This document shows, piece by piece, positions 5,562-29,193 of a stretch of DNA of 34,002 nt (position 1 is the stretch's first letter; each line of letters begins with the position of its first letter). A program made the translations under genes and the position numbers. Below the pieces are notes generated by a model. The model saw only the letters and a list, made by a program, of their open reading frames with translations. It was not told the origin of the DNA and did not search any database. This DNA comes from Bacteroidales bacterium. Its GTDB lineage: Bacteria > Bacteroidota > Bacteroidia > Bacteroidales > VadinHA17. The stretch lies in NCBI GenBank assembly GCA_023251395.1, contig JAHEYW010000006.1, positions 1 to 34,002 of the forward strand, written 5' to 3'.

Positions 5562-6497
5562 ATGGCGAACCAATTCGTTATTGAAGCTAAAAACGTCTGG
5601 AAATCCTTCAAGACCGTGCAGGCTGTAAAAGGTGTTGACATAAAAATTCCTGAGGGGCAGTTTGTTGCACTTCTTGGGCCGAATGGTGCAGGAAAAACGA
5701 CGTTTGTGGAGATGATTGAAGGTATCCAAAAACCAGACTGTGGGGAGATAACAATTATGGGGAAGACCTGGAAAGGAAATGAGGATGAACTTCACCGCTT
5801 TCTTGGAATCTCACTTCAGGAAACTTTATTTATCGACAAGTTAAACGTATTTGAAACACTTGATCTTTTTGCATCTTTCTTCGACCTTGGAAAGCAAAAG
5901 GTTAATGAGATAATTGAAATTGTCGGGCTGGAGGAAAAGAGAAAATCATATGTGGTTAACCTTTCTGGCGGACAGCGTCAGAGACTGGCCCTTGGTGTAT
6001 CGCTGATAAATGATCCAAAGATCCTTCTTCTTGACGAGCCGACAACAGGCCTTGATCCAAATGCAAGAAGGGAAATATGGGAAATACTTCAGCGGCTTAA
6101 AGATAAAGCCGGTACTTCAATGATCCTTACAACTCACTATATGGAGGAGGCAGAAAATCTTTGCGACTATATCATTATTTTGGATAATGGAAAGATTCTG
6201 AAAGAAGGTACTCTCAGTCAGCTGCTCGATGAAGACACAAACCAGAAGGTCATTGAATTTACCACAGAGAAAGGAGTTTTACCGGAGGATGCTCATGGGC
6301 CCGACCTTCCCTTTTCAATCCGTCGTGAACCAACAGGAAATAAGGGTTATGTTACACTGACAAATTTTGAATCTGATCTCCCTGTATTCATGTCCTATCT
6401 TAAATCGAGGAACATTAGTCTGCGAAATATGGAATGCAGAAGAAAAACACTTGATGATCTTTTTGTTTCACTTACAGGGAGGAAGATTGATGAATAG
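5562..6497 (+). CDS. ABC-2 type (drug/multidrug) exporter ATP-binding protein
   Basis: Walker A GPNGAGKT, signature LSGGQ, Walker B LLLDEPTTGLD, TTHYMEEAE and C-terminal TLDDLF. Confidence 0.93.
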   Translation: MANQFVIEAKNVWKSFKTVQAVKGVDIKIPEGQFVALLGPNGAGKTTFVEMIEGIQKPDCGEITIMGKTWKGNEDELHRFLGISLQETLFIDKLNVFETLDLFASFFDLGKQKVNEIIEIVGLEEKRKSYVVNLSGGQRQRLALGVSLINDPKILLLDEPTTGLDPNARREIWEILQRLKDKAGTSMILTTHYMEEAENLCDYIIILDNGKILKEGTLSQLLDEDTNQKVIEFTTEKGVLPEDAHGPDLPFSIRREPTGNKGYVTLTNFESDLPVFMSYLKSRNISLRNMECRRKTLDDLFVSLTGRKIDE

Positions 6498-7632
6498 GAT
6501 CGTCAGGTTTAACCAGCTTTGGCGGCTAACAATAGCACTGCTTCTGGAAATAATCAGGGAACCAGGTGTTCTTTTCTGGGGAATTCTTTTTCCAATTCTC
6601 ATGTCGCTCGGCCTTGGTATTGCTTTCACTAAAAAAACCGATGTCATTAGAAAAGTAGCCGTTGTGGAACAAAACGAAAGTCAGGTTACTAAAAGGGATA
6701 CAGGAGCTATCTACAAATTTCTGAATTCAAGATGCGAACTGAACACATCCGGGAAGGCTGATTCTTACAATTGGAAATATACCATTAAAGACGAGAAGCT
6801 GGGAAATTCGATTTTCCTTTTTTACAAAATGGAACAGGAAGAAGCGATGAAACTGCTCAAACGTGGAACTGTTAACGTGCTTTTAATCAATAAGAATGGT
6901 GCGACAGAATATCATTTTGATCCTATGAATCCTGATGCGCAGCTGACATATCTTAAACTCAGCGGTATTTTAGGTACCGGAATGACAAGTGATGTGAAAG
7001 GCAGTGGTGAAATCAGACCATTGACTGTAACCGGGACGCGCTATATAGATTTCCTTGTACCCGGACTGATCACCATGGGTGTAATGATGTCATCAATGTG
7101 GGGAATAAGCTATGGCATCATTGAAAAAAGATCAAAGAAACTCCTCAGAAGGCTGGTAGCGACCCCAATGAAGAAATCTCATTTTCTCATTGCCCTGATA
7201 ACTGTGAGATTATTAATGAACTTCATTGAATCACTGGTTTTGTTCCTGTTTGCGCTTATCGCATTTAAGCTTAAGATACAGGGTGATATATCTTCACTTA
7301 TTGTAATGTTTCTTGCAGGAAACATTGCCTTTGCAGGTATTGCAGTTTTTGTATCATCACATACATCAAATACTGAGGTAGGAAATGGACTGATAAATTT
7401 CGTTGTTTTTCCGATGACTGTCCTCTCAGGGATCTTCTTCAGCTATCAGAATTTTCCGGACTGGAGCCTTCCCGTTATCAGGAACCTGCCCCTGACGATG
7501 ATGACTGATGGAATCAGGAGTATATTTAATGAAGGGGCAGGATATGCCGAGGTTGCCTTCCCAATTGTTATCCTGACATTTACCGGTATAGTCTTCTTCT
7601 TTGCAGGATTAAAAATATTCAAATGGCACTGA
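6490..7632 (+). CDS. ABC-2 type exporter permease
   Basis: Likely start is the ATG at 6490 (MNRIVRF), overlapping the ATPase stop. One N-terminal TM (FWGILFPIL), a periplasmic domain, then YIDFLVPG, LLRRLVATP and five further TM helices. Confidence 0.9.
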   Translation: MNRIVRFNQLWRLTIALLLEIIREPGVLFWGILFPILMSLGLGIAFTKKTDVIRKVAVVEQNESQVTKRDTGAIYKFLNSRCELNTSGKADSYNWKYTIKDEKLGNSIFLFYKMEQEEAMKLLKRGTVNVLLINKNGATEYHFDPMNPDAQLTYLKLSGILGTGMTSDVKGSGEIRPLTVTGTRYIDFLVPGLITMGVMMSSMWGISYGIIEKRSKKLLRRLVATPMKKSHFLIALITVRLLMNFIESLVLFLFALIAFKLKIQGDISSLIVMFLAGNIAFAGIAVFVSSHTSNTEVGNGLINFVVFPMTVLSGIFFSYQNFPDWSLPVIRNLPLTMMTDGIRSIFNEGAGYAEVAFPIVILTFTGIVFFFAGLKIFKWH

Positions 7633-7713
7633 CACTGAAAATATTCTTTATAATTAATGCAGCATCCTGATTTTCTATGAGTCTTTAGATCAAACCAATA
7701 AATTAGGAAGCAA

Positions 7714-8436
7714 ATGAAAAGCCTGAAAATTTTTCTGATCATATTAGTCAGTTTAACCCTTATTGCATCATGTATCAATGGCCAGATCCACAAGACAGTA
7801 AGGGGCAATGGCGATGTTGTAAAGAAAGAAAGAAATGTTGAATCGTTCGACGGAATAAAAGTAAGTTCCGGTGTAAGCGTTTACCTTCGTCAGGGGGACA
7901 AAGAATCGGTTACAGTTGAAGCTGACGAAAATCTTCATGAATATATAATTTCAGAAGTAAAAGGAGGTGTGTTACATGTCTATTCAGATGCCATTATCCG
8001 CAATGCTGAAAGGGAAAGGGTATATGTCACAATGAAAGAAATACATTCCCTGAAAACAAGCAGTGCCGGCGATATTATCGGCGAAGCACCTCTTAAATGT
8101 GAGGATGTCGAAATTGGGGTAAGCAGCGCCGGTGATATTAAACTTGAGATTACTGCAAAAAATGTCGAAGTCGATATAAGCAGTTCAGGTAATGTCAGGT
8201 TGACCGGGGAAGCAGAAAAGCTTAATGCAAACCTGAGCAGTGCCGGGAACCTTGAAGCATATGATTTCAAAGTAAAAGAAGCTGACGTTTCTGTTTCAAG
8301 CGCGGGTGATGCAAAAGTATTTGCCTCTGAACGAATTCATGCACGCGCATCAAGTGCAGGTGATATAACATACAAAGGCGATCCGGAATATGTTGACGCA
8401 CACTCATCGAGTGCAGGAGGTATTCATAGAAGGTAA
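7714..8436 (+). CDS. Head GIN domain (DUF2807) lipoprotein
   Basis: Lipobox LIASC, VRGNGDVVKKER, repeated SSAG-D/N beta-solenoid units and C-terminal YKGDP. Confidence 0.88.
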   Translation: MKSLKIFLIILVSLTLIASCINGQIHKTVRGNGDVVKKERNVESFDGIKVSSGVSVYLRQGDKESVTVEADENLHEYIISEVKGGVLHVYSDAIIRNAERERVYVTMKEIHSLKTSSAGDIIGEAPLKCEDVEIGVSSAGDIKLEITAKNVEVDISSSGNVRLTGEAEKLNANLSSAGNLEAYDFKVKEADVSVSSAGDAKVFASERIHARASSAGDITYKGDPEYVDAHSSSAGGIHRR

Positions 8437-21725: not shown

Positions 21726-22973
21726 ATGTTTTTCAGGATATTTAAAGAAGGTATTGTTTTTGCTGTTAACTCAATAGTTGTTAATAAGTTAAGAACATTT
21801 TTGTCCCTTTTTGGTATTACAATCGGGATTTTTTCCATAATTTCTGTTTTCACTGTTCTTGATTGGATGGAAAGTTCTATAAGGAGCAGCATTTCGACTT
21901 TAGGGGACAATGTAGTATATATTCAGAAATGGCCATGGACATTTAATGATAACTTTGCCTGGTGGGATGTAATGAAATGGCCTGCTATATCCCTCGATGA
22001 TCTTAAGGCTATCCAGACCAAAACAACAAAAGCTGAAACTGCCTGTTTTGATGTTACACAGTCAAAACAGATTAAATACAAGAAGAATATCGCCTCTAGC
22101 ATCGCAACAACCGCAGTAACATACGAGTTCAAAGATCTCAGGACAATAGATGTGGAAAAAGGAAGATATTTCTCTCCGTTTGAGGTCACTTCGGGCAAGA
22201 ATGTTGTTGTTCTCGGTAACACAATTGCAGAAAAGTTATTTGATAAATCTGATCCAATTGGAAAAGAAATAACCATAGGAGGGTATAAGACCACAGTAAT
22301 TGGTGTGGTGAAAAAGGAAGGGAAAGGTGCTTTTAGCGGTTTGGAACTTGATGAAAGAGCCCTTATTCCATTGAATTTTGGAAAAACCTTTATGAATCTG
22401 CGGAACAGGTTTGTTGATACAGAAATAATGGTAAAACCAAAACCAGGTATTGCTGCACAGGAATTGACTGATGATCTGCAAATGGTAATGCGGGCAGCAA
22501 GGAGGATCAGGCCCGGTCAACAAAGTAATTTCTCAGTAAATCAGGCTACACTTCTTACACAGGGATTCGATGCTATCTTCGCTGGGATTAATGTAGGCGG
22601 CTGGCTTATTGGAGGACTTGCAATTCTTGTAGGCGGATTCGGAATCGCCAATATCATGTTCGTTTCTGTAAGAGAAAGAACCAATCAGATCGGAATACAA
22701 AAAGCCCTTGGTGCAAAAAGATACTTTATCCTTATGCAATTCCTGACAGAATCTTTGTTGTTGTCAGTTGTTGGAGGAATCCTTGGAATAATTTTTATCC
22801 TTATTGGTACTGTGATAATAAATTATCTTTACGAACTTAATATGTTCCTTACATTCGGGAATATTATCCTTGCCATTGTCATTTCAGGTGTAATAGGGAT
22901 TGTGGCAGGATACGCGCCAGCGTATGCTGCAGCAAGAATGAATCCGGTAGACGCTATAGGTTTCTCATTCTGA
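21726..22973 (+). CDS. MacB/FtsX family ABC transporter permease
   Basis: NKLRTFLSLFGITIG, a periplasmic domain with GRYF, GGFGIANIMFVSVRERT.IGI.KALGA and PAYAAARMNPVDAI. Confidence 0.93.
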   Translation: MFFRIFKEGIVFAVNSIVVNKLRTFLSLFGITIGIFSIISVFTVLDWMESSIRSSISTLGDNVVYIQKWPWTFNDNFAWWDVMKWPAISLDDLKAIQTKTTKAETACFDVTQSKQIKYKKNIASSIATTAVTYEFKDLRTIDVEKGRYFSPFEVTSGKNVVVLGNTIAEKLFDKSDPIGKEITIGGYKTTVIGVVKKEGKGAFSGLELDERALIPLNFGKTFMNLRNRFVDTEIMVKPKPGIAAQELTDDLQMVMRAARRIRPGQQSNFSVNQATLLTQGFDAIFAGINVGGWLIGGLAILVGGFGIANIMFVSVRERTNQIGIQKALGAKRYFILMQFLTESLLLSVVGGILGIIFILIGTVIINYLYELNMFLTFGNIILAIVISGVIGIVAGYAPAYAAARMNPVDAIGFSF

Positions 22974-22978
22974 AAATA

Positions 22979-23758
22979 TCAGTCGACGATCATATTGGCT
23001 TTGACCCAATTGGTAAGGCCAATAAACTGGTCTACTGACAATTGTTCTGGCCTGAGATGGAATAAGGAATTATCTTCTGACTTGAGTCTGAATGCCGACC
23101 TGACTGAATTTCTGAGAGTCTTTCTCCTCTGGTTAAAGGAGGCTTTGACCACCCTTGTAAAAAGTTGTTCATCACATCCGAGTGTTTTAGTCCCGTTCCG
23201 TTTTAACCTGATGACACCTGATTTTACTTTTGGTGGCGGAGAAAAAACATTTTCAGAAACAGAAAAGAGATAATCTGTTTCATAATATGCCTGGAGCAAT
23301 ACACTTAAAATTCCATAAGTCTTTGATCCCGGACCTGCACAGATCCTTTCAGCCACTTCCTTCTGAAACATTCCTGTCACCTCGACCACCTTATCCCTGT
23401 TATCCAGAACTTTAAAAAGGATCTGACTGGATATGTTGTACGGGAAGTTACCAGCTATACAAAATTTAGCATCAAAGAGACTATTTATATCGATATTAAG
23501 GAAATCACCGGTAATAATATTTTTCAGCTCTGGCAGGTTTTCCTTCAGATAATTTACCGACTCATGGTCGATCTCAATGACCCTGAAATCACGAAAGTTT
23601 CTGTCGAGGAGGAATTTTGTAAGGATGCCCATTCCGGGACCAATTTCAAGGACAGATTCATAACCTTCCCCAGTAATTGAATCAGCAATCCTTGCTGCAA
23701 TTTTCTTGTCTTTGAGGAAATGCTGACCTAGATTCTTCTTTGGTCTGACCCTGTTCAT
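22979..23758 (-). CDS. rsmA: 16S rRNA adenine dimethyltransferase
   Basis: KKNLGQHFL, LEIGPGMG, GNFPYNIS, FSPPPKV and QRRKTL. Confidence 0.97.
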   Translation of the reverse strand: MNRVRPKKNLGQHFLKDKKIAARIADSITGEGYESVLEIGPGMGILTKFLLDRNFRDFRVIEIDHESVNYLKENLPELKNIITGDFLNIDINSLFDAKFCIAGNFPYNISSQILFKVLDNRDKVVEVTGMFQKEVAERICAGPGSKTYGILSVLLQAYYETDYLFSVSENVFSPPPKVKSGVIRLKRNGTKTLGCDEQLFTRVVKASFNQRRKTLRNSVRSAFRLKSEDNSLFHLRPEQLSVDQFIGLTNWVKANMIVD

Positions 23759-23791
23759 GTTAAACGGCTAAATGATAAATAAGAATCAGCT

Positions 23792-26700
23792 TCAAAGCAA
23801 TTGTCGTCCGAACTTTCTCCATAATGGTAGCCTGAGAGTCTCCAGCCAGTTAATGAAACGCTTGAGCAGGTTGTAGTACAGAGTAATAAAAAGGAAGCCT
23901 ACCATTATCCAGATTGCAATCAGATTAAAAAGCAGTGTCGGTATCCTCTTCCCGCCAATAACTTTATAAGGGGCAAAAAACTGAGCTCTCCCGACAGGGG
24001 AGTCGGGAATCATAAATATTGGCTGCGTTTTTCGTATATATCTGTTTCCAACCTGAAGTATCTCGGTTCGCAGATCATCCCTGTTTTTTACCAGGTCATC
24101 GAGCCTTTTATTAAAATATCTGTCCTGAAGTGCAGACCATCCATTGGGTCCGATCCTTAATGCAATACTCTCAGCAACAGAGTCCCTCAGTTTATTTGTT
24201 CTATCCTGCTGCGCCCTGAAATGCGTTTTAATTTTGCCCAGGTATTTTTTCATACTGTCAGCAACAAACTCATTTAAATCTTTAAATGTCAGACTTCTGA
24301 ATTCAGCAGGTAATACGATCCCGGATTCTCTGGATAAACTTCTGAAATGATATCGCAATAACCTGAGGTTTTTTTCAACTGTATCCCTGGAAATTGGATT
24401 CTTCCCGTATGTTTCGCATTCATTTATTTTAGCCATCATTGCTGAGTAAAGTACTCGTGCATTATAATCATAAGTGTTTGCCTGAAGATCATACTGGAAA
24501 AGTGGTTTTTCAAACTTATTATTCTTGAACTGTTCAACAGTTATTGCTTCATAAGCCCACCTTGTAGCCATAAAATCCCCAACCACAGGAACATATACCT
24601 TCCGGGAAATTGACCAGTGCAGATCATCGAATTTTATCATAGCACCACCGAGCAGTAACTGTGGTACCAGGATAAGAGGGATGAGAATGTAGATACTCAC
24701 AATTGTCCTCATCCCTGCAGAAATATTAAGTCCTATCAGGTTACCATAACAGGCAGTAGTAAAAAATATCAGCCATTGCTGCCAGAGCATCCCCCTTATC
24801 TCCAGGACCAAACTTGCCACTAGTACAAAAAACAGCGCCTGGATTGCAGATAGTACAAAAAGGAAATTAATTTTTGAAATAAGATAACTTAACCTGCTTA
24901 ATCTCAGAAACTTCTCTCTCTCCAGTATCTTTCTGTCCTTGAAGATCTCCTCAGCGCTTACCATAAGCCCAAGAAAAAGTGCAACAACAACAGTCATAAA
25001 CAGGAAGACCGGATAACTCTTGTTGTCTGAGAAGATATAATATCCGTTAATTGTATATTTTGAAAGGTAACCCAGGATAAATGCAAGGAATGGTGCTTCA
25101 ATAAGATTCAGAATAACATATTGAGTATCTGCTTGTTTCCTTAATAAATTCCTTTTTATGAATGTACGGATCTGGTATAGCTTTTTCGGTACTTTAAAGT
25201 TACTGGCAGGTAATTCTGTCTTTTCGGGTGACTTCTCAAAGACAGGCATCATCTTCTTTTTATACTTTTCATACCATTCCTCAGGACTAACCTGTCGCTC
25301 TGTCCCCTGGTAGCCCAATGTATCAATAACCTTTACCTCAACAATATGCAGAATATCTTCAGTATTTATATTGCCGCAGTTCGGACATTCACTTTCTGAT
25401 GCATTTGCCTGTGAGGCTTCTGTTTTGAAATATACCAGGGCTTCTACCGGATCTCCATCATAGATCATATAGCCCCCCTTGTCAAGTATCCATAACCTGT
25501 CAAACAGTTTCAGAATATTTGATGATGGCTGATGAATATTGGCAATTACAAGTTTTCCTGAAAGAGCATGTTTCCTGAGCAGATTCATAACCTTCTCCGA
25601 ATCATGCGATGAGAGTCCTGAAGTAGGTTCATCTACAAAAAGTACCGCCGGTTCCCTCATAAGTTCCAGACCGATGTTAAGTCTTTTTCTCTGACCACCA
25701 CTTACTTTTTTGCTCAGCAGGTCTCCAACCTGAAGGTCTTTAATTTCGAGGAGCTCAAGATCAGCCAGTACTTTTAAAACCAGATCATTAAGTTTTCTCT
25801 CATCAAAATCACCGAAACAAAGTCTTGCATTAAAATAGAGGTTCTGAAATACTGTCAGCTCCTCGATCAGCATATCATCCTGCGGGACATAACCTATCAG
25901 ACCTTTTAGTATTTCATCATCATCATGAAGATCGTAGCCATTTATAAAAAGGTTTCCGGAGTCTGGAACCATCTTCCCATGAAACAAATTCAGCAGGGTA
26001 GTTTTTCCAACACCACTTCCTCCCATAATTCCCACCAGGTTTCCTGATTCAAGCCTGAAATTCAGAGGTTTGATTCCATTATCAGATCCTTTGAATGAAA
26101 ACTCAACATCACGTCCTTCAAATACAATTTTACCATGGAAAGTATCAAGAAGGAATGCCTTATATACTTTTGAGTAATAAATCGGCTCAATTCCAGGTCC
26201 CTTGATATTCACACCCCTGTCGAGCAAATAAGGCCGGCAGGCAATGATATCACGACCTTTGAAATACAGGGCAAGAGAACCATCATAAGTCAGTACCAGC
26301 GAACCAGTGCTTTCAATATGGAGGACAAACAGCTGGCCTCTGAATCCCTTAACCCTGAGGTGCTTCCATTGATGATAATTGACGAAATCATTCTCAACGG
26401 AATATTTTGGATTATCACTTTCTATTATCAGTATACAATCAGGAGAAACTTTATCATAGTGCCTTCCGATCATGAATGCACAGGCATTCTCGTATTCTTT
26501 CTGAGAGATATTAAAAGTTCGTGAAACGATCTCGATAATGCTTTTCTCCTGTTCGGTAATACTGCCGTCTTCAAATGCAAACTCGAGCAGCTGCAGAAAG
26601 ACGATCATTCTTTCATCAAGGAAAAGCCCTTTTTTGATCTGACGGCAGATATTGGTGATCTGGAAGGAGATAAGGGAACCTTCGTCGGCAAGTTCTTCCT

Positions 26701-26902
26701 TGTCGACATTTTTAAGCTCATAGGAGTAAAATTCAAGATTGTTTTCGAACAGGGCAAAATATTCCTCTTCCAGCTCACGGTTAAGATATCTTCTGAGGTA
26801 ACTGCGAAGTATTTTTTTGCCTCGCGAAGTAATTCCTCCAGGATTAACTGTAGAGGCAATTGCAAAAATGTGTATTAATGCCAGTAATACCGATTCCCTC
26901 AT
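23792..26902 (-). CDS. ABCG/White-type half transporter (NBD before TMD) with an N-terminal TerB-like domain
   Basis: TerB-like FAFEDGSITEQEKSIIEIV (~aa 108-126). Walker A GGSGVGKT, GYVPQDD, VSGGQRKR, LFVDEPTSGL and IHQP. CPNC at aa 506-509. ABC-2-type TM region with EEIFKDRKILERE, a large soluble loop and a final TM. Confidence 0.88.
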   Translation of the reverse strand: MRESVLLALIHIFAIASTVNPGGITSRGKKILRSYLRRYLNRELEEEYFALFENNLEFYSYELKNVDKEELADEGSLISFQITNICRQIKKGLFLDERMIVFLQLLEFAFEDGSITEQEKSIIEIVSRTFNISQKEYENACAFMIGRHYDKVSPDCILIIESDNPKYSVENDFVNYHQWKHLRVKGFRGQLFVLHIESTGSLVLTYDGSLALYFKGRDIIACRPYLLDRGVNIKGPGIEPIYYSKVYKAFLLDTFHGKIVFEGRDVEFSFKGSDNGIKPLNFRLESGNLVGIMGGSGVGKTTLLNLFHGKMVPDSGNLFINGYDLHDDDEILKGLIGYVPQDDMLIEELTVFQNLYFNARLCFGDFDERKLNDLVLKVLADLELLEIKDLQVGDLLSKKVSGGQRKRLNIGLELMREPAVLFVDEPTSGLSSHDSEKVMNLLRKHALSGKLVIANIHQPSSNILKLFDRLWILDKGGYMIYDGDPVEALVYFKTEASQANASESECPNCGNINTEDILHIVEVKVIDTLGYQGTERQVSPEEWYEKYKKKMMPVFEKSPEKTELPASNFKVPKKLYQIRTFIKRNLLRKQADTQYVILNLIEAPFLAFILGYLSKYTINGYYIFSDNKSYPVFLFMTVVVALFLGLMVSAEEIFKDRKILEREKFLRLSRLSYLISKINFLFVLSAIQALFFVLVASLVLEIRGMLWQQWLIFFTTACYGNLIGLNISAGMRTIVSIYILIPLILVPQLLLGGAMIKFDDLHWSISRKVYVPVVGDFMATRWAYEAITVEQFKNNKFEKPLFQYDLQANTYDYNARVLYSAMMAKINECETYGKNPISRDTVEKNLRLLRYHFRSLSRESGIVLPAEFRSLTFKDLNEFVADSMKKYLGKIKTHFRAQQDRTNKLRDSVAESIALRIGPNGWSALQDRYFNKRLDDLVKNRDDLRTEILQVGNRYIRKTQPIFMIPDSPVGRAQFFAPYKVIGGKRIPTLLFNLIAIWIMVGFLFITLYYNLLKRFINWLETLRLPLWRKFGRQLL

Positions 26903-26918
26903 GGAGGTTTAACAATAT

Positions 26919-26949
26919 AAAAAGACCGCAAGGCTATGGCGTTGCGGTC
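26919..26949 (-). terminator. Intrinsic terminator-like hairpin between the lipoprotein and transporter genes
   Basis: Minus strand reads gaccgcaa-cgccatagcc-ttgcggtc followed by ttttt. Confidence 0.7.
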
Positions 26950-26966
26950 ATCATTTTAAGTCAGAA

Positions 26967-27794
26967 TTATTGAATTATTTTTTCCCTTACTGTGCTAATT
27001 GCTTTGCTGATGTCCTTGATATTATTCAATGTCAGACTTGTTCCCAGACCCTGATAAACCTTACGTATAGGTTCCATGTTCTTAAGCATTTCTTTGATAT
27101 TGGGATCATTACTATATGGCTTGGTCAGGTCAAGGTAAAGTTCAAATGATTTTTTCTGGTCAAGAAGCACTTTTGAAAACCTGGCATCCTGATAAGCTGC
27201 TTCATTAACAAGGCATGTAAGGTACATTCCTTCAACCCATCCACCACCAACAACCAACAGAGCAAAAGTCTGCTGATCATTATCAGTCATATATGAATAG
27301 GTCTCGTTGAATGCATTTGAAAGAATTGAAACCAGTTTATCCTTATTGTCGAAGTTGGTCTTAATACTATCGTATAAAGCAGGCTTATATATCTGTGACA
27401 AATTAAGATCATTGGCAAGACTTTTCATTACATCCATGTATGTGGTTACTTCCTGCATTATATTATAGACTGTAACATAACTCAGGTCTGCTCCATATAT
27501 ACCTATTGCAGTAGCTTTCGCTTTACTGGTATAGTATTTTTTTACATTTCCGGCAGAATTTGTGACCCCTATCTGATACCCGACTTCCATATCAGTAAGC
27601 AACTTTATTACCTGTGCACTTGTAGGTAGTGGATATACATTCTTTATGATTGCCTTTTTTATAGTATCTCCTTTTTGCAGATCAACTGTTCCTTTACCTT
27701 TGGCTTTATTGGAAGAACTGGAATTGCAGGAAGTTAATCCGATTAAACCAAAAACCAATAAAGGAATGATCATAGTTATAATGGTCTTTTTCAT
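26967..27794 (-). CDS. Uncharacterised alpha-helical lipoprotein (275 aa)
   Basis: Signal peptide II with lipobox LTSC, a Ser/Lys-rich tether, and motifs PLPTS, GIYGADLSY and GGWVEGMYL. Confidence 0.85.
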   Translation of the reverse strand: MKKTIITMIIPLLVFGLIGLTSCNSSSSNKAKGKGTVDLQKGDTIKKAIIKNVYPLPTSAQVIKLLTDMEVGYQIGVTNSAGNVKKYYTSKAKATAIGIYGADLSYVTVYNIMQEVTTYMDVMKSLANDLNLSQIYKPALYDSIKTNFDNKDKLVSILSNAFNETYSYMTDNDQQTFALLVVGGGWVEGMYLTCLVNEAAYQDARFSKVLLDQKKSFELYLDLTKPYSNDPNIKEMLKNMEPIRKVYQGLGTSLTLNNIKDISKAISTVREKIIQ

Positions 27795-27983
27795 GCCTGA
27801 TCGTTTTAAATGATTTATTTGCTTTTTAACGGGTATAAAAATAGAAAATAAAATTATATTAATTACACCTATTTTTCTAATTTGATCCGAACACTCAGAG
27901 TAAATTAGATGTCAATCAAATTTTCCTCACTTAAAATTAGGTTCTAATCTTCATCCTATTTAAGGTCCTGAACTATTTTTGAT

Positions 27984-27991
27984 TATCTTTG
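27984..27991 (+). promoter_or_regulatory. Bacteroidota -7 element (TATCTTTG) for patB-carA
   Basis: Exact TAnnTTTG match 26 nt before the ATG at 28018. Confidence 0.6.
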
Positions 27992-28017
27992 AACCCCTGA
28001 ATTTAACCTCATTTTTA

Positions 28018-29193
28018 ATGGGCTGGAATTTCGATGAACCTGTCATCAGGGAAGGTACTAATTGCATCAAGTATGATCTGAGAAAAGAAATTTTCGGAAA
28101 CGAAGATGTAATTCCCATGTGGGTTGCAGATATGGATTTTAAGACACCTGAGTTTATCATTCAGGCACTCACTGACCGTTTGAAACATGAAATCATGGGG
28201 TATTCTTTCAGGCCTCATGAATATTTTTCATCGATTATCGACTGGTCGGAAAAACGATATAACTGGAAAATAGAAAAAGAATGGATATGCTTCAGTCCGG
28301 GAATAGTTCCTGCTTTAAATTTCTGTACTCTTGCATACACAAATCCTGGCGACAAAATTATTGTTCAACCACCGGTATATTTCCCTTTCTTCAGCGCTGC
28401 AGAACTGCATGGACGGAAACTTATATATAACCGGTTAAAGGAATCAGATGGCAGCTGGGAAATGGACTTTGATAACCTTCGTGAGTCCATCGACGAGAAG
28501 ACCAAAATGATTTTCATTTCAAATCCTCATAATCCACTCGGCAGAGTCTGGTATCCTGATGAACTATATGAACTTTCTGAAATCTGCTTGGAAAATAATA
28601 TTATTATGGTCTCTGATGAGATACATTGTGACCTGGTCTTACCCGGCTTCAAATTTACTCCTGCGGCTTCTCTTTCAGACAGGATTGCATCTGACACAAT
28701 TACCTGTATTGCACCAAGCAAGACATTTAACCTGGCCGGGCTATCAACTTCTTCAGTCATTATTTCAAACCCGGAATTAAGAAAATCTTTTAATTCTGTT
28801 GTCGAAAAACTTCATGTTGGAAATGGAAATATTTTTGGTACTATTGCTTCAATTGCTGCCTATACCCACGGACATGCCTGGCTTGATGAACTATTAAAAT
28901 ATATTGAATCAAATGTGGGTTATGTACTTGAATTCTGTAGTGACAGGATCCCGGAAATAGTTCCTCTCAGGACGGAAGCAACTTATATGATCTGGCTTGA
29001 CTGCAGATCATTACATATGTCGGGCAAAGAACTGCAGTCCTTTTTTGTTAAAGAAGCTGGTGTTGGAATGAATGAAGGATCTACCTTCGGCCCCGGTGGA
29101 GAAGGTTTCATGAGAATGAACCTGGCTTGTCCAAAAGCCACACTGATTAAAGCAATGGATAAAATTGAAAAAGCGATCAGCAAACTAAGATAA
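28018..29193 (+). CDS. MalY/PatB family PLP-dependent C-S lyase (cystathionine beta-lyase-like)
   Basis: PMWVADMDF, NPHNP.GRVW, SDEIHCDL, APSKTFNLAGL and EATYMIWLD. Likely start is the ATG at 28018. Confidence 0.92.
   Translation: MGWNFDEPVIREGTNCIKYDLRKEIFGNEDVIPMWVADMDFKTPEFIIQALTDRLKHEIMGYSFRPHEYFSSIIDWSEKRYNWKIEKEWICFSPGIVPALNFCTLAYTNPGDKIIVQPPVYFPFFSAAELHGRKLIYNRLKESDGSWEMDFDNLRESIDEKTKMIFISNPHNPLGRVWYPDELYELSEICLENNIIMVSDEIHCDLVLPGFKFTPAASLSDRIASDTITCIAPSKTFNLAGLSTSSVIISNPELRKSFNSVVEKLHVGNGNIFGTIASIAAYTHGHAWLDELLKYIESNVGYVLEFCSDRIPEIVPLRTEATYMIWLDCRSLHMSGKELQSFFVKEAGVGMNEGSTFGPGGEGFMRMNLACPKATLIKAMDKIEKAISKLR

Follow-up and report, generated by a model that had tools for sequence, protein, structure and literature searches.

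What would a transporter of the ABCG type do in a bacterial envelope when a large N-terminal head is built into it and a lipoprotein gene precedes its own? This question is raised by a two-gene locus in a 34,002-nt stretch of DNA from a Bacteroidales bacterium (contig JAHEYW010000006.1, positions 1 to 34,002; this whole stretch is called the window below). The locus encodes a 275-residue lipoprotein and, downstream of it, a 1036-residue ATP-binding cassette (ABC) protein. We propose that together they may form an envelope module in which an ABCG-type pump exports an amphipathic or lipid-linked cargo and hands it over to its dedicated lipoprotein, and we give this reading an even chance of being right. 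The argument starts from the domain architecture of the ABC protein, the folds of its head, the linkage of the two genes and a hairpin between them. A preliminary description made from the letters of the sequence had placed the locus directly upstream of rsmA among core genes and quoted ABC motifs from the translation. Both open reading frames (ORFs) were found on the minus strand with the positions and lengths given there, the motifs IGYVPQDD, VSGGQRKRL and NIHQPS are present, and the genomic position is confirmed by a PF00398 match and by housekeeping surroundings.

Eukaryotic ABCG transporters are well studied and export sterols, lipids and drugs. To our knowledge, transporters of this type have hardly been studied in Gram-negative bacteria, and the route by which many Bacteroidota envelope lipids and glycolipids cross the periplasm is, as far as we know, still open. 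A pair consisting of an ABCG-fold pump and a helical lipoprotein would be a testable candidate for such a lipid route or for inside-out signalling. The pump would moreover carry a built-in regulatory head, and the link of its sister clades to a phospho-switch adds interest. The features of the locus are as follows.

26967..27794, minus strand: lipoprotein gene, 275 residues (ORF list)
26919..26949, minus strand: terminator-like hairpin (8-bp stem 26942-26949/26924-26931, 10-nt loop, T-run 26919-26923)
23792..26902, minus strand: ABC protein gene, 1036 residues (ORF, Pfam, NCBIfam and PDB alignments; full-length relatives have ~1000-1050 residues)
26468..26902, minus strand: TerB-like helical bundle, residues ~1-145, predicted to be cytoplasmic (Pfam family matches, AlphaFold2, PDB fold comparison)
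26138..26467, minus strand: FHA-shaped beta-sandwich, residues ~146-255 (fold comparison by VIA and Foldseek)
25403..26110, minus strand: nucleotide-binding domain (NBD), residues ~265-500 (PF00005, 9.2e-29)
25376..25387, minus strand: CxxC motif (Cys506, Cys509) in the linker between NBD and membrane domain (each Cys at least 90% conserved in a 50-sequence alignment)
24611..25177, minus strand: ABC-2 type transmembrane domain (TMD), transmembrane segments (TM) 1 to 5, residues 576-764 (PF01061, 5.2e-21; hydropathy; alignment with ABCG1, ABCG2 and ABCG8)
23948..24580, minus strand: non-hydrophobic insert of ~200 residues between TM5 and TM6, residues ~775-985 (hydropathy, ABCG8 alignment)
23795..23947, minus strand: last transmembrane helix (~988-1010) and short basic C-terminal tail (hydropathy, charge count)
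22979..23758, minus strand: rsmA/ksgA, directly after the ABC gene (PF00398, E 1.1e-52)

The transporter core

Pfam places ABC_tran at residues 278-428 (9.2e-29) and ABC2_membrane at residues 576-764 (5.2e-21), so that the NBD precedes the TMD in one chain. The Walker A, Q-loop, signature, Walker B-glutamate and H-loop motifs are intact, and their columns are nearly invariant in the 50-sequence alignment; hydrolysis of ATP would thus be expected. The best NCBIfam model is TIGR00955, the White/pigment permease (1.2e-63, residues 284-818), and among PDB sequences ABCG1 aligns at residues 271-770, ABCG2 at 288-761 and ABCG8 at 274-801 (E 3.5e-35 to 1.8e-33). The TIGR00955 score of 215.6 bits lies far under the curated cut-off of 736.35, which marks the protein as a distant bacterial relative that shares the ABCG domain order and fold class and stands outside the eukaryotic subfamily. 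Source annotations for its relatives are generic, e.g., 'ABC-type multidrug transport system ATPase subunit'. Judged by its sequence, the 1036-residue protein is an ABCG/White-type half-transporter (ABC-2, type V fold), most likely working as a homodimer. The two cysteines of the CxxC motif in each chain could then provide a four-cysteine metal site in the dimer.

By hydropathy, transmembrane segments lie at residues ~596-614, 632-650 and 681-699, followed by two further ones up to ~755 and a final one at ~988-1010, and no hydrophobic segment is found across residues ~775-985. The alignment with ABCG8 stops at residue 801, ahead of the last segment. Both the ABCG-type core and the soluble insert of ~200 residues before the last transmembrane segment had been recognized in the preliminary description; the first is supported by the best NCBIfam model and by similarity to ABCG1, ABCG2 and ABCG8 over NBD and TMD, the second by hydropathy and by its place at the position of ABCG extracellular loop 3. 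Because the NBD is cytoplasmic and the topology would be that of ABCG proteins, the insert is expected to face the periplasm. A comparison with the ESM Atlas returned unnamed clusters for the insert, together with a weak lead to a fungal PDR_CDR loop domain (score 0.80).

The lipoprotein partner and the hairpin between the genes

The protein encoded by the first gene has a signal peptide at residues 1-23 with a hydrophobic segment at 5-19, and its lipobox L-T-S-C ends in Cys23, which is invariant in 40 of 40 relatives. In the AlphaFold2 model, residues 1-55 have a predicted local distance difference test score (pLDDT) below 50, with residues ~24-55 forming a disordered tether, while residues ~56-275 are all-helical (12 helices, mostly at pLDDT >90). 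The residues following the lipid-anchor cysteine are basic or neutral, not acidic; since acidic residues at this place mark surface-exported lipoproteins in Bacteroidetes, their lack argues for a periplasmic location. Many Tyr, Asn, Asp, Gln, Glu, Trp and Arg residues are invariant or nearly so in a 40-sequence alignment. The protein has 1437 homologues at E <=0.001, and all but a few of those named are hypothetical. It matches no Pfam, NCBIfam or PDB-sequence family, its ESM Atlas matches are unnamed Bacteroidota clusters only, and Foldseek gave nothing at E <=0.001 (the best match was EfeO at 0.29). The highest VIA fold scores, those of NasR NIT (Z 7.2), TorS (5.4) and McpS (5.3), lie in a range that is uninformative for helical proteins, and neither VIA nor Foldseek revealed a sequence or fold relationship with LolA, LptA or MlaC.

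The two genes are linked well beyond this genome. Among the 80 best lipoprotein loci of species-representative genomes, 79 are followed on the same strand, after 50-400 nt, by an ABC gene, and most of these 79 share the order aminotransferase-lipoprotein-ABC-rsmA. Nine divergent loci (L098, L099, L102-L108; lipoprotein identity 32-40%) keep the pair after the synteny with rsmA and the aminotransferase gene has gone, and such pair-keeping loci include records of Ancylomarina longa and Saccharicrinis. Approached from the side of the transporter, nine of 11 ABC-centred loci, which represent three families of the class including one from the order of the window, adjoin a lipoprotein-family gene, which lies upstream in six and downstream in three. 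A sample of 151 genomes from across the order has the lipoprotein family in 69 and the ABC head family in 71; 68 genomes have both, four only one and 79 neither, and both families are multi-copy. A FastTree of 64 members (built on their first 800 residues and rooted at the midpoint, with support values left aside, and hence descriptive only) places the window within a large clade in which the lipoprotein gene precedes the ABC gene; copies that stand alone or adjoin the switch fall into other clades, and every major clade contains copies with a linked lipoprotein gene. The linkage of the two genes is thus strongly supported, and the lipoprotein would be the transporter's dedicated partner. The association of the two had first been suggested from co-orientation at one locus, and it extends past local synteny, in 79 of 80 loci and in 68 of the 72 genomes holding either family.

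These observations bear directly on the reading in which the protein is an ordinary multidrug or ABC-2 efflux pump and the lipoprotein an unrelated neighbor. Such a pump would agree with the source annotation quoted above, with the presence of ABCG2 and fungal PDR pumps among the closest solved relatives, and with the many family members that stand alone. We nevertheless hold it to be very unlikely, as adjacency outlasts synteny and is seen again among paralogous clades and with either gene first, the two families have almost the same phyletic distribution, a conserved intercistronic element joins the genes, and a regulatory head with a giant loop is not a feature of plain efflux. Chance neighborhood as such was rejected on these grounds.

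The intercistronic element lies in the 64-nt gap that separates the two genes. It is a terminator-like hairpin that ends 16 nt ahead of the ABC start codon, with a folding energy of -17.4 kcal/mol (z -5.08) that none of 200 shuffles reached. A strict scan found a hairpin followed by a T-run in 62 of 78 related loci, compared with 14 of 780 coding stretches of equal length and 16 of 780 shuffles (~2%). In close relatives the stem sequence is conserved, and 89.5% of the cells are paired versus 35-50% when the partner is slid; in distant loci, different hairpin sequences occupy the same place. RNAalifold found no consensus structure on the hairpin alignment, and these pairs were counted on a structure given by hand. 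Rfam has no family in 23700-28050, and a generic terminator scan, whose loop limit is 8 nt, does not detect a hairpin with a 10-nt loop. Most close relatives have 10-20 nt between the hairpin and the ABC start, and the -7 promoter motif of Bacteroidetes (consensus TAnnTTTG) occurs in the last 88 nt ahead of that start in only six of 78 loci. With so short a gap and so rare a motif, transcription of the ABC gene probably reads through the hairpin. The interpretation that we favor is a partial terminator with read-through or a stabilizing 3' hairpin, and either would leave the lipoprotein in excess over the pump.

In importer operons, surplus binding protein is classically obtained by placing a hairpin behind the first gene. 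The conserved hairpin may therefore also be counted in favor of transport in the opposite direction. Lipoprotein made in surplus would then capture a ligand, either within the periplasm or at the outer membrane, and deliver it to the transporter to be inserted into the inner membrane or passed across it, in the manner of MlaC-MlaFEDB or of binding-protein importers. Numerous invariant positions of the lipoprotein are polar or aromatic, as in a ligand pocket; these and its weak resemblance to periplasmic helical sensor domains (NasR NIT, TorS, McpS) would suit such uptake. Those fold matches are in the uninformative range mentioned above, direction of transport is something that sequence cannot tell, and we know of no importer with an ABCG/ABC-2 fold. 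Taken together, we regard uptake as decidedly unlikely.

The two proteins diverge unevenly. Averaged over 72 orthologous loci, the NBD is 74% identical to that of the window and the TMD 70%; the head follows at 68%, the lipoprotein at 50% and the insert region at 36.4%, so the parts predicted to face the periplasm change fastest. Divergence of the lipoprotein and that of the insert correlate weakly after control for NBD and TMD (partial r 0.26); since the correlation is weak and the loci are related, nothing is concluded from it.

The N-terminal head and the switch-linked sister clades

When 1.84 billion representatives were searched by HMMER, the head (residues 1-265) matched 404 clusters, 158 of them at E <=1e-10. 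For 146 of the 150 clusters listed, the match begins within the first 30 residues, and the proteins have ~1000-1050 residues or are fragments; being so regularly at the protein start, the head looks specific to this transporter family. AlphaFold2 models it with a pLDDT of 89.3 and a predicted template modelling score of 0.85; eight helices, the last ending at residue 144, are followed by a beta domain (residues 157-234) and a closing helix.

The N-terminal part had been described beforehand as TerB-like, and a TerB-like fold is what was found. When 40 family members were scanned singly, TerB (PF05099) matched 30 of them at E <=0.1 (best 6.4e-9); the match of the window protein covers residues 79-140 at E 3.6e-4, with 21.2-23.7 bits against a cut-off of 24.4. 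A profile of the head had no match among PDB sequences (best E 0.34). In a VIA comparison with 48,161 PDB representatives, the top two fold matches are of the TerB type, 2h5n_A (Z 8.3, 119/132 aligned) and 2ou3_B (Z 8.2, 130/160), and although Z values under roughly 13 may lack specificity where helical bundles are compared, we accept the TerB fold because the fold match agrees with the sequence-profile matches. The two structures are PG1108 of Porphyromonas gingivalis (2h5n) and a Nostoc COG3793 protein (2ou3), which share the helical-bundle fold of residues 1-~145. Both are small stand-alone proteins, whereas the domain is here fused to a transporter and is degenerate in sequence in the window's clade. 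TerB typically has two acidic 'DG...E' stretches; in the 40-sequence alignment, the first is not kept in the window's clade and is kept by some paralogues.

Could the protein then be an exporter for tellurite or metal stress, with the TerB domain sensing the metal? The TerB-like fold and the family-level Pfam matches would fit, but apart from the head the window contains no ter or metal-handling genes, the first acidic stretch has been lost in this clade, and TerB also occurs in non-metal contexts, such as a DjlA-like TerB-DnaJ protein. We consider this reading hardly credible, and a tellurite-resistance determinant was rejected on these points. The TerB-DnaJ protein just mentioned is encoded at L014:636-1355, ~1 kb from an 'orphan' lipoprotein-family gene.

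The second domain of the head resembles FHA domains in shape. About 25 FHA structures match residues 146-255 in VIA at Z 5.3-6.3, headed by MDC1 (3va1; Z 6.3, root-mean-square deviation 2.8, 79 aligned), and FHA domains also head the Foldseek list, with probabilities up to 0.99 and E values of 0.04-0.4 (best 0.044, none at 0.001). Sequence methods do not see this relationship. Pfam FHA is absent among the 25 families listed for the 40 members, where an unlisted family matched at most one member. PF00498 has no match in this genome, which holds at least three further transporter paralogues, and the same model finds true FHA domains in two of 12 relatives. An hhalign comparison of the beta domain with seven true FHA domains gave a probability of 12.6%. 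Canonical reading of phosphothreonine by FHA domains is defined by conserved Arg, Ser and Asn residues. The near-invariant residues of the beta domain in 40 sequences are Gly189, Gly208, Gly230 and Tyr242, with no conserved Arg after Gly189, in an FHA alignment that is weak and leaves residue equivalence uncertain; the window's clade also does not have the Asn of the family's usual 'LNG'. With moderate support, which comes from fold and not from sequence, the domain appears to be FHA-shaped and to be devoid of the canonical phosphothreonine-reading residues. As to the degenerate FHA fold proposed in the preliminary description, the structural comparison bears it out at Z 5.3-6.3, while neither the Pfam FHA model nor hhalign recognizes the domain.

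The wider family adds a possible context for this head. At least three further transporter copies are present in the same genome. One of them (C28; L002:1486-4554; 42% identity) stands alone with no lipoprotein gene nearby and faces a divergent gene that encodes a fusion of DUF6272 (SiaB-like) and SiaC (PF09345) domains (L002:4762-5673). A 452-residue protein encoded downstream of this copy has a start that looks TIR-like and matches nothing in Pfam at E <=0.001. Contigs C252 and C262 (L003, L004, L127) share a third paralogue, broken between them, which has a STAS-domain gene upstream and at its C262 end is followed by a lipoprotein-family gene and a gene for a 151-residue secreted protein. 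The fourth copy is partial and lies at the end of contig C173.

Elsewhere, in L110-L112, the order is lipoprotein, small secreted protein (138-150 residues, with a signal peptide) and ABC, with convergent DUF6272 and SiaC genes. In L116 and L118, a SpoIIE/PP2C sensor gene is followed by DUF6272, SiaC, ABC, lipoprotein and small secreted protein genes; the last of these is also found in L114. With a small purpose-built profile, a SiaC-like gene, co-oriented with the lipoprotein-ABC pair and immediately downstream of it, was detected in L098, L105 and L011, which come from sister branches of the window's clade. Another locus, L140 (G110:C11:600-12095), has lipoprotein-family and small-secreted-protein-family genes on either side of its transporter gene. 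The switch-linked form with three components is absent from the window, where neither DUF6272 or SiaC genes nor a small secreted protein gene occur. As the gaps of 64 nt between lipoprotein and ABC genes and 33 nt between ABC gene and rsmA leave no room for a third gene and switch genes are missing, the window represents a reduced two-gene form.

SiaABCD of Pseudomonas aeruginosa, the subject of earlier reports (PMC7647112/10.1101/674879, PMC8457831), comprises the PP2C phosphatase SiaA, the kinase SiaB and the phosphoprotein SiaC. The transporter paralogues resemble this system in adjoining SpoIIE/PP2C, DUF6272 and SiaC (PF09345) genes (L110-L112, L116, L118). It differs in that its known output is a diguanylate cyclase and not a transporter, and in that the window locus is without switch genes. 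A more tentative reading, possible rather than probable in our view, combines these elements: an envelope machine would pass a cargo or a conformational signal through its hypervariable loop to a lipoprotein that the hairpin, as a conserved attenuator, keeps in excess, and a phospho-blind FHA-like head would dock SiaC-type switch proteins, encoded beside it in sister clades, by which the machine would be turned on and off. If true, a partner switch would for the first time have a transporter as its output, and the machine would be a bacterial counterpart of the lipid hand-off from ABCG/ABCA proteins to helical acceptor proteins.

Export, signalling and the known systems

In the export mechanism that we propose for the module, the TerB/FHA-like head would serve as a cytoplasmic regulatory control of the transporter, and ATP hydrolysis would expel from the inner membrane a cargo that is amphipathic or lipid-linked. 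Its way out would be the periplasmic loop domain between TM5 and TM6, where the lipoprotein, on its flexible tether of ~30 residues, would take up the cargo or control its release. The hairpin would let only part of the transcripts pass onward, which would keep the lipoprotein in excess over the pump. In the sister clades, the same core is joined by the small secreted protein and stands beside the SiaA/SiaB/SiaC phospho-switch; the window's clade has neither of these and is set among housekeeping genes. Among the mechanisms considered, our preference for export to the lipoprotein comes from analogy with ABCG and ABC-2 exporters.

The same parts could be arranged into a device through which no substrate crosses the membrane. 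The ATPase cycle would move the periplasmic loop and thereby switch the lipoprotein, or a partner bound to it, on and off, so that a cytoplasmic signal read by the head is transmitted outward as in FtsEX, MacB or LolCDE. A large periplasmic domain with a dedicated periplasmic partner and a regulatory cytoplasmic head would both be in place for this, the paralogue genes that directly follow a PP2C/SiaB/SiaC switch suit inside-out signalling, and biosynthetic or cargo genes were not seen nearby. On the other hand, the TMD has the ABC-2/ABCG fold, whose studied members move substrates, the known mechanotransmitters have a different, MacB-type fold, and we know of no ABCG-type mechanotransmitter; the fast-evolving insert also opposes precise mechanical coupling, if not strongly. 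We consider such mechanotransmission rather unlikely.

Several observations weigh against export to a dedicated lipoprotein or soften parts of the argument for it. The 79 loci with adjacent genes are for the most part closely related and share their synteny, and are thus not independent, and co-occurrence at the level of genomes could partly reflect shared lineage. In the order-wide sample, seven of the 20 best lipoprotein matches have no ABC gene within ~5 kb; among the same 20, one has a convergent ABC gene ~4 kb away and another an intervening gene. Likewise, 17 of 20 re-examined ABC loci, chosen as ones without a listed lipoprotein match, have no lipoprotein gene within ~5 kb, and their neighbors are unrelated housekeeping genes. 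The pairing persists across clades and yet the partner is often absent, which suggests that it is old and functional but not obligatory in cis. As regards the hairpin, covariation in the aligned set was not above that of shuffles, and the element could instead be a full terminator, with a promoter for the ABC gene inside the lipoprotein gene. The helical periplasmic domain that we infer for the insert comes from hydropathy and homology to the ABCG topology. The polar and aromatic residues conserved in the lipoprotein would accommodate a polar ligand no less than a hydrophobic one, and a survey of the window ORFs gave no hint of a cargo in the gene neighborhood.

Several inner-membrane ABC machines work with a dedicated periplasmic or lipid-anchored partner, among them LolCDE-LolA, LptB2FG-LptC/A, MlaFEDB-MlaC and FtsEX; the arrangement is similar to the one proposed here, and the transporter folds are different. 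With eukaryotic ABCG1, ABCG2 and ABCG5/G8 of the White family and with fungal PDR proteins, the window protein shares the NBD-first order and an ABC-2 type TMD; by hydropathy, this TMD would likewise have six helices, with the largest loop predicted between TM5 and TM6. It differs from the ABCG proteins in being bacterial, in its TerB and FHA-like head of ~260 residues, in the ~200-residue loop between TM5 and TM6 and in its putative dedicated lipoprotein partner.

A bacterial parallel is Rv1747 of Mycobacterium tuberculosis, which has an ABC-2 type TMD. It is described as an FHA-regulated ABC exporter working with the kinase PknF (PMC3138270, PMC5549992, PMC8339232). The likeness lies in FHA-type domains placed N-terminal to an ABC ATPase-permease. 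Rv1747 has two canonical FHA domains, whereas the window protein has a single FHA-shaped domain that Pfam FHA does not see and in which the canonical Arg, Ser and Asn are not conserved. No Ser/Thr kinase domain is encoded among the window ORFs, and the TerB domain, the giant loop and the lipoprotein partner are additions found here.

In the literature covered, which was available in part and lay outside the subscription journals, we found neither a TerB/FHA-like ABCG transporter of Bacteroidota nor a transporter linked to DUF6272/SiaC, and, in keeping with the preliminary description, no characterized orthologue. The two-gene form among core genes, the hairpin, the uneven divergence and the frequency with which the partner is absent are new here.

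The head family was found in seven of 294 sampled genomes of the phylum outside the order, in two other families of the class, or in nine of 301 overall once the genome of the window and a second one from its order are included. Within the order, about half of the family-level lineages sampled carry it, and its cultured carriers include Ancylomarina longa, Geofilum rhodophaeum and a Saccharicrinis record. In the two largest, well-studied families sampled, it was present in 0 of 63 and 0 of 49 genomes, which may explain why it has gone unstudied.

By Pfam and ORF survey, the rest of the window is made up of housekeeping genes, including mreB-mreC-PBP2-rodA, purH, carA and arginine genes, and the aminotransferase gene next to the locus is divergent from the lipoprotein gene. 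A MacB-type permease (MacB_PCD and FtsX), with no adjoining ATPase gene, is encoded at 21726-22973, convergent to rsmA. A second ABC-2 system, unrelated to the one described here, occupies positions 5562-8433 and consists of an ATPase (5562-6494), an ABC2_membrane_3 permease (6367-7629) and a DUF2807 protein (7714-8433).

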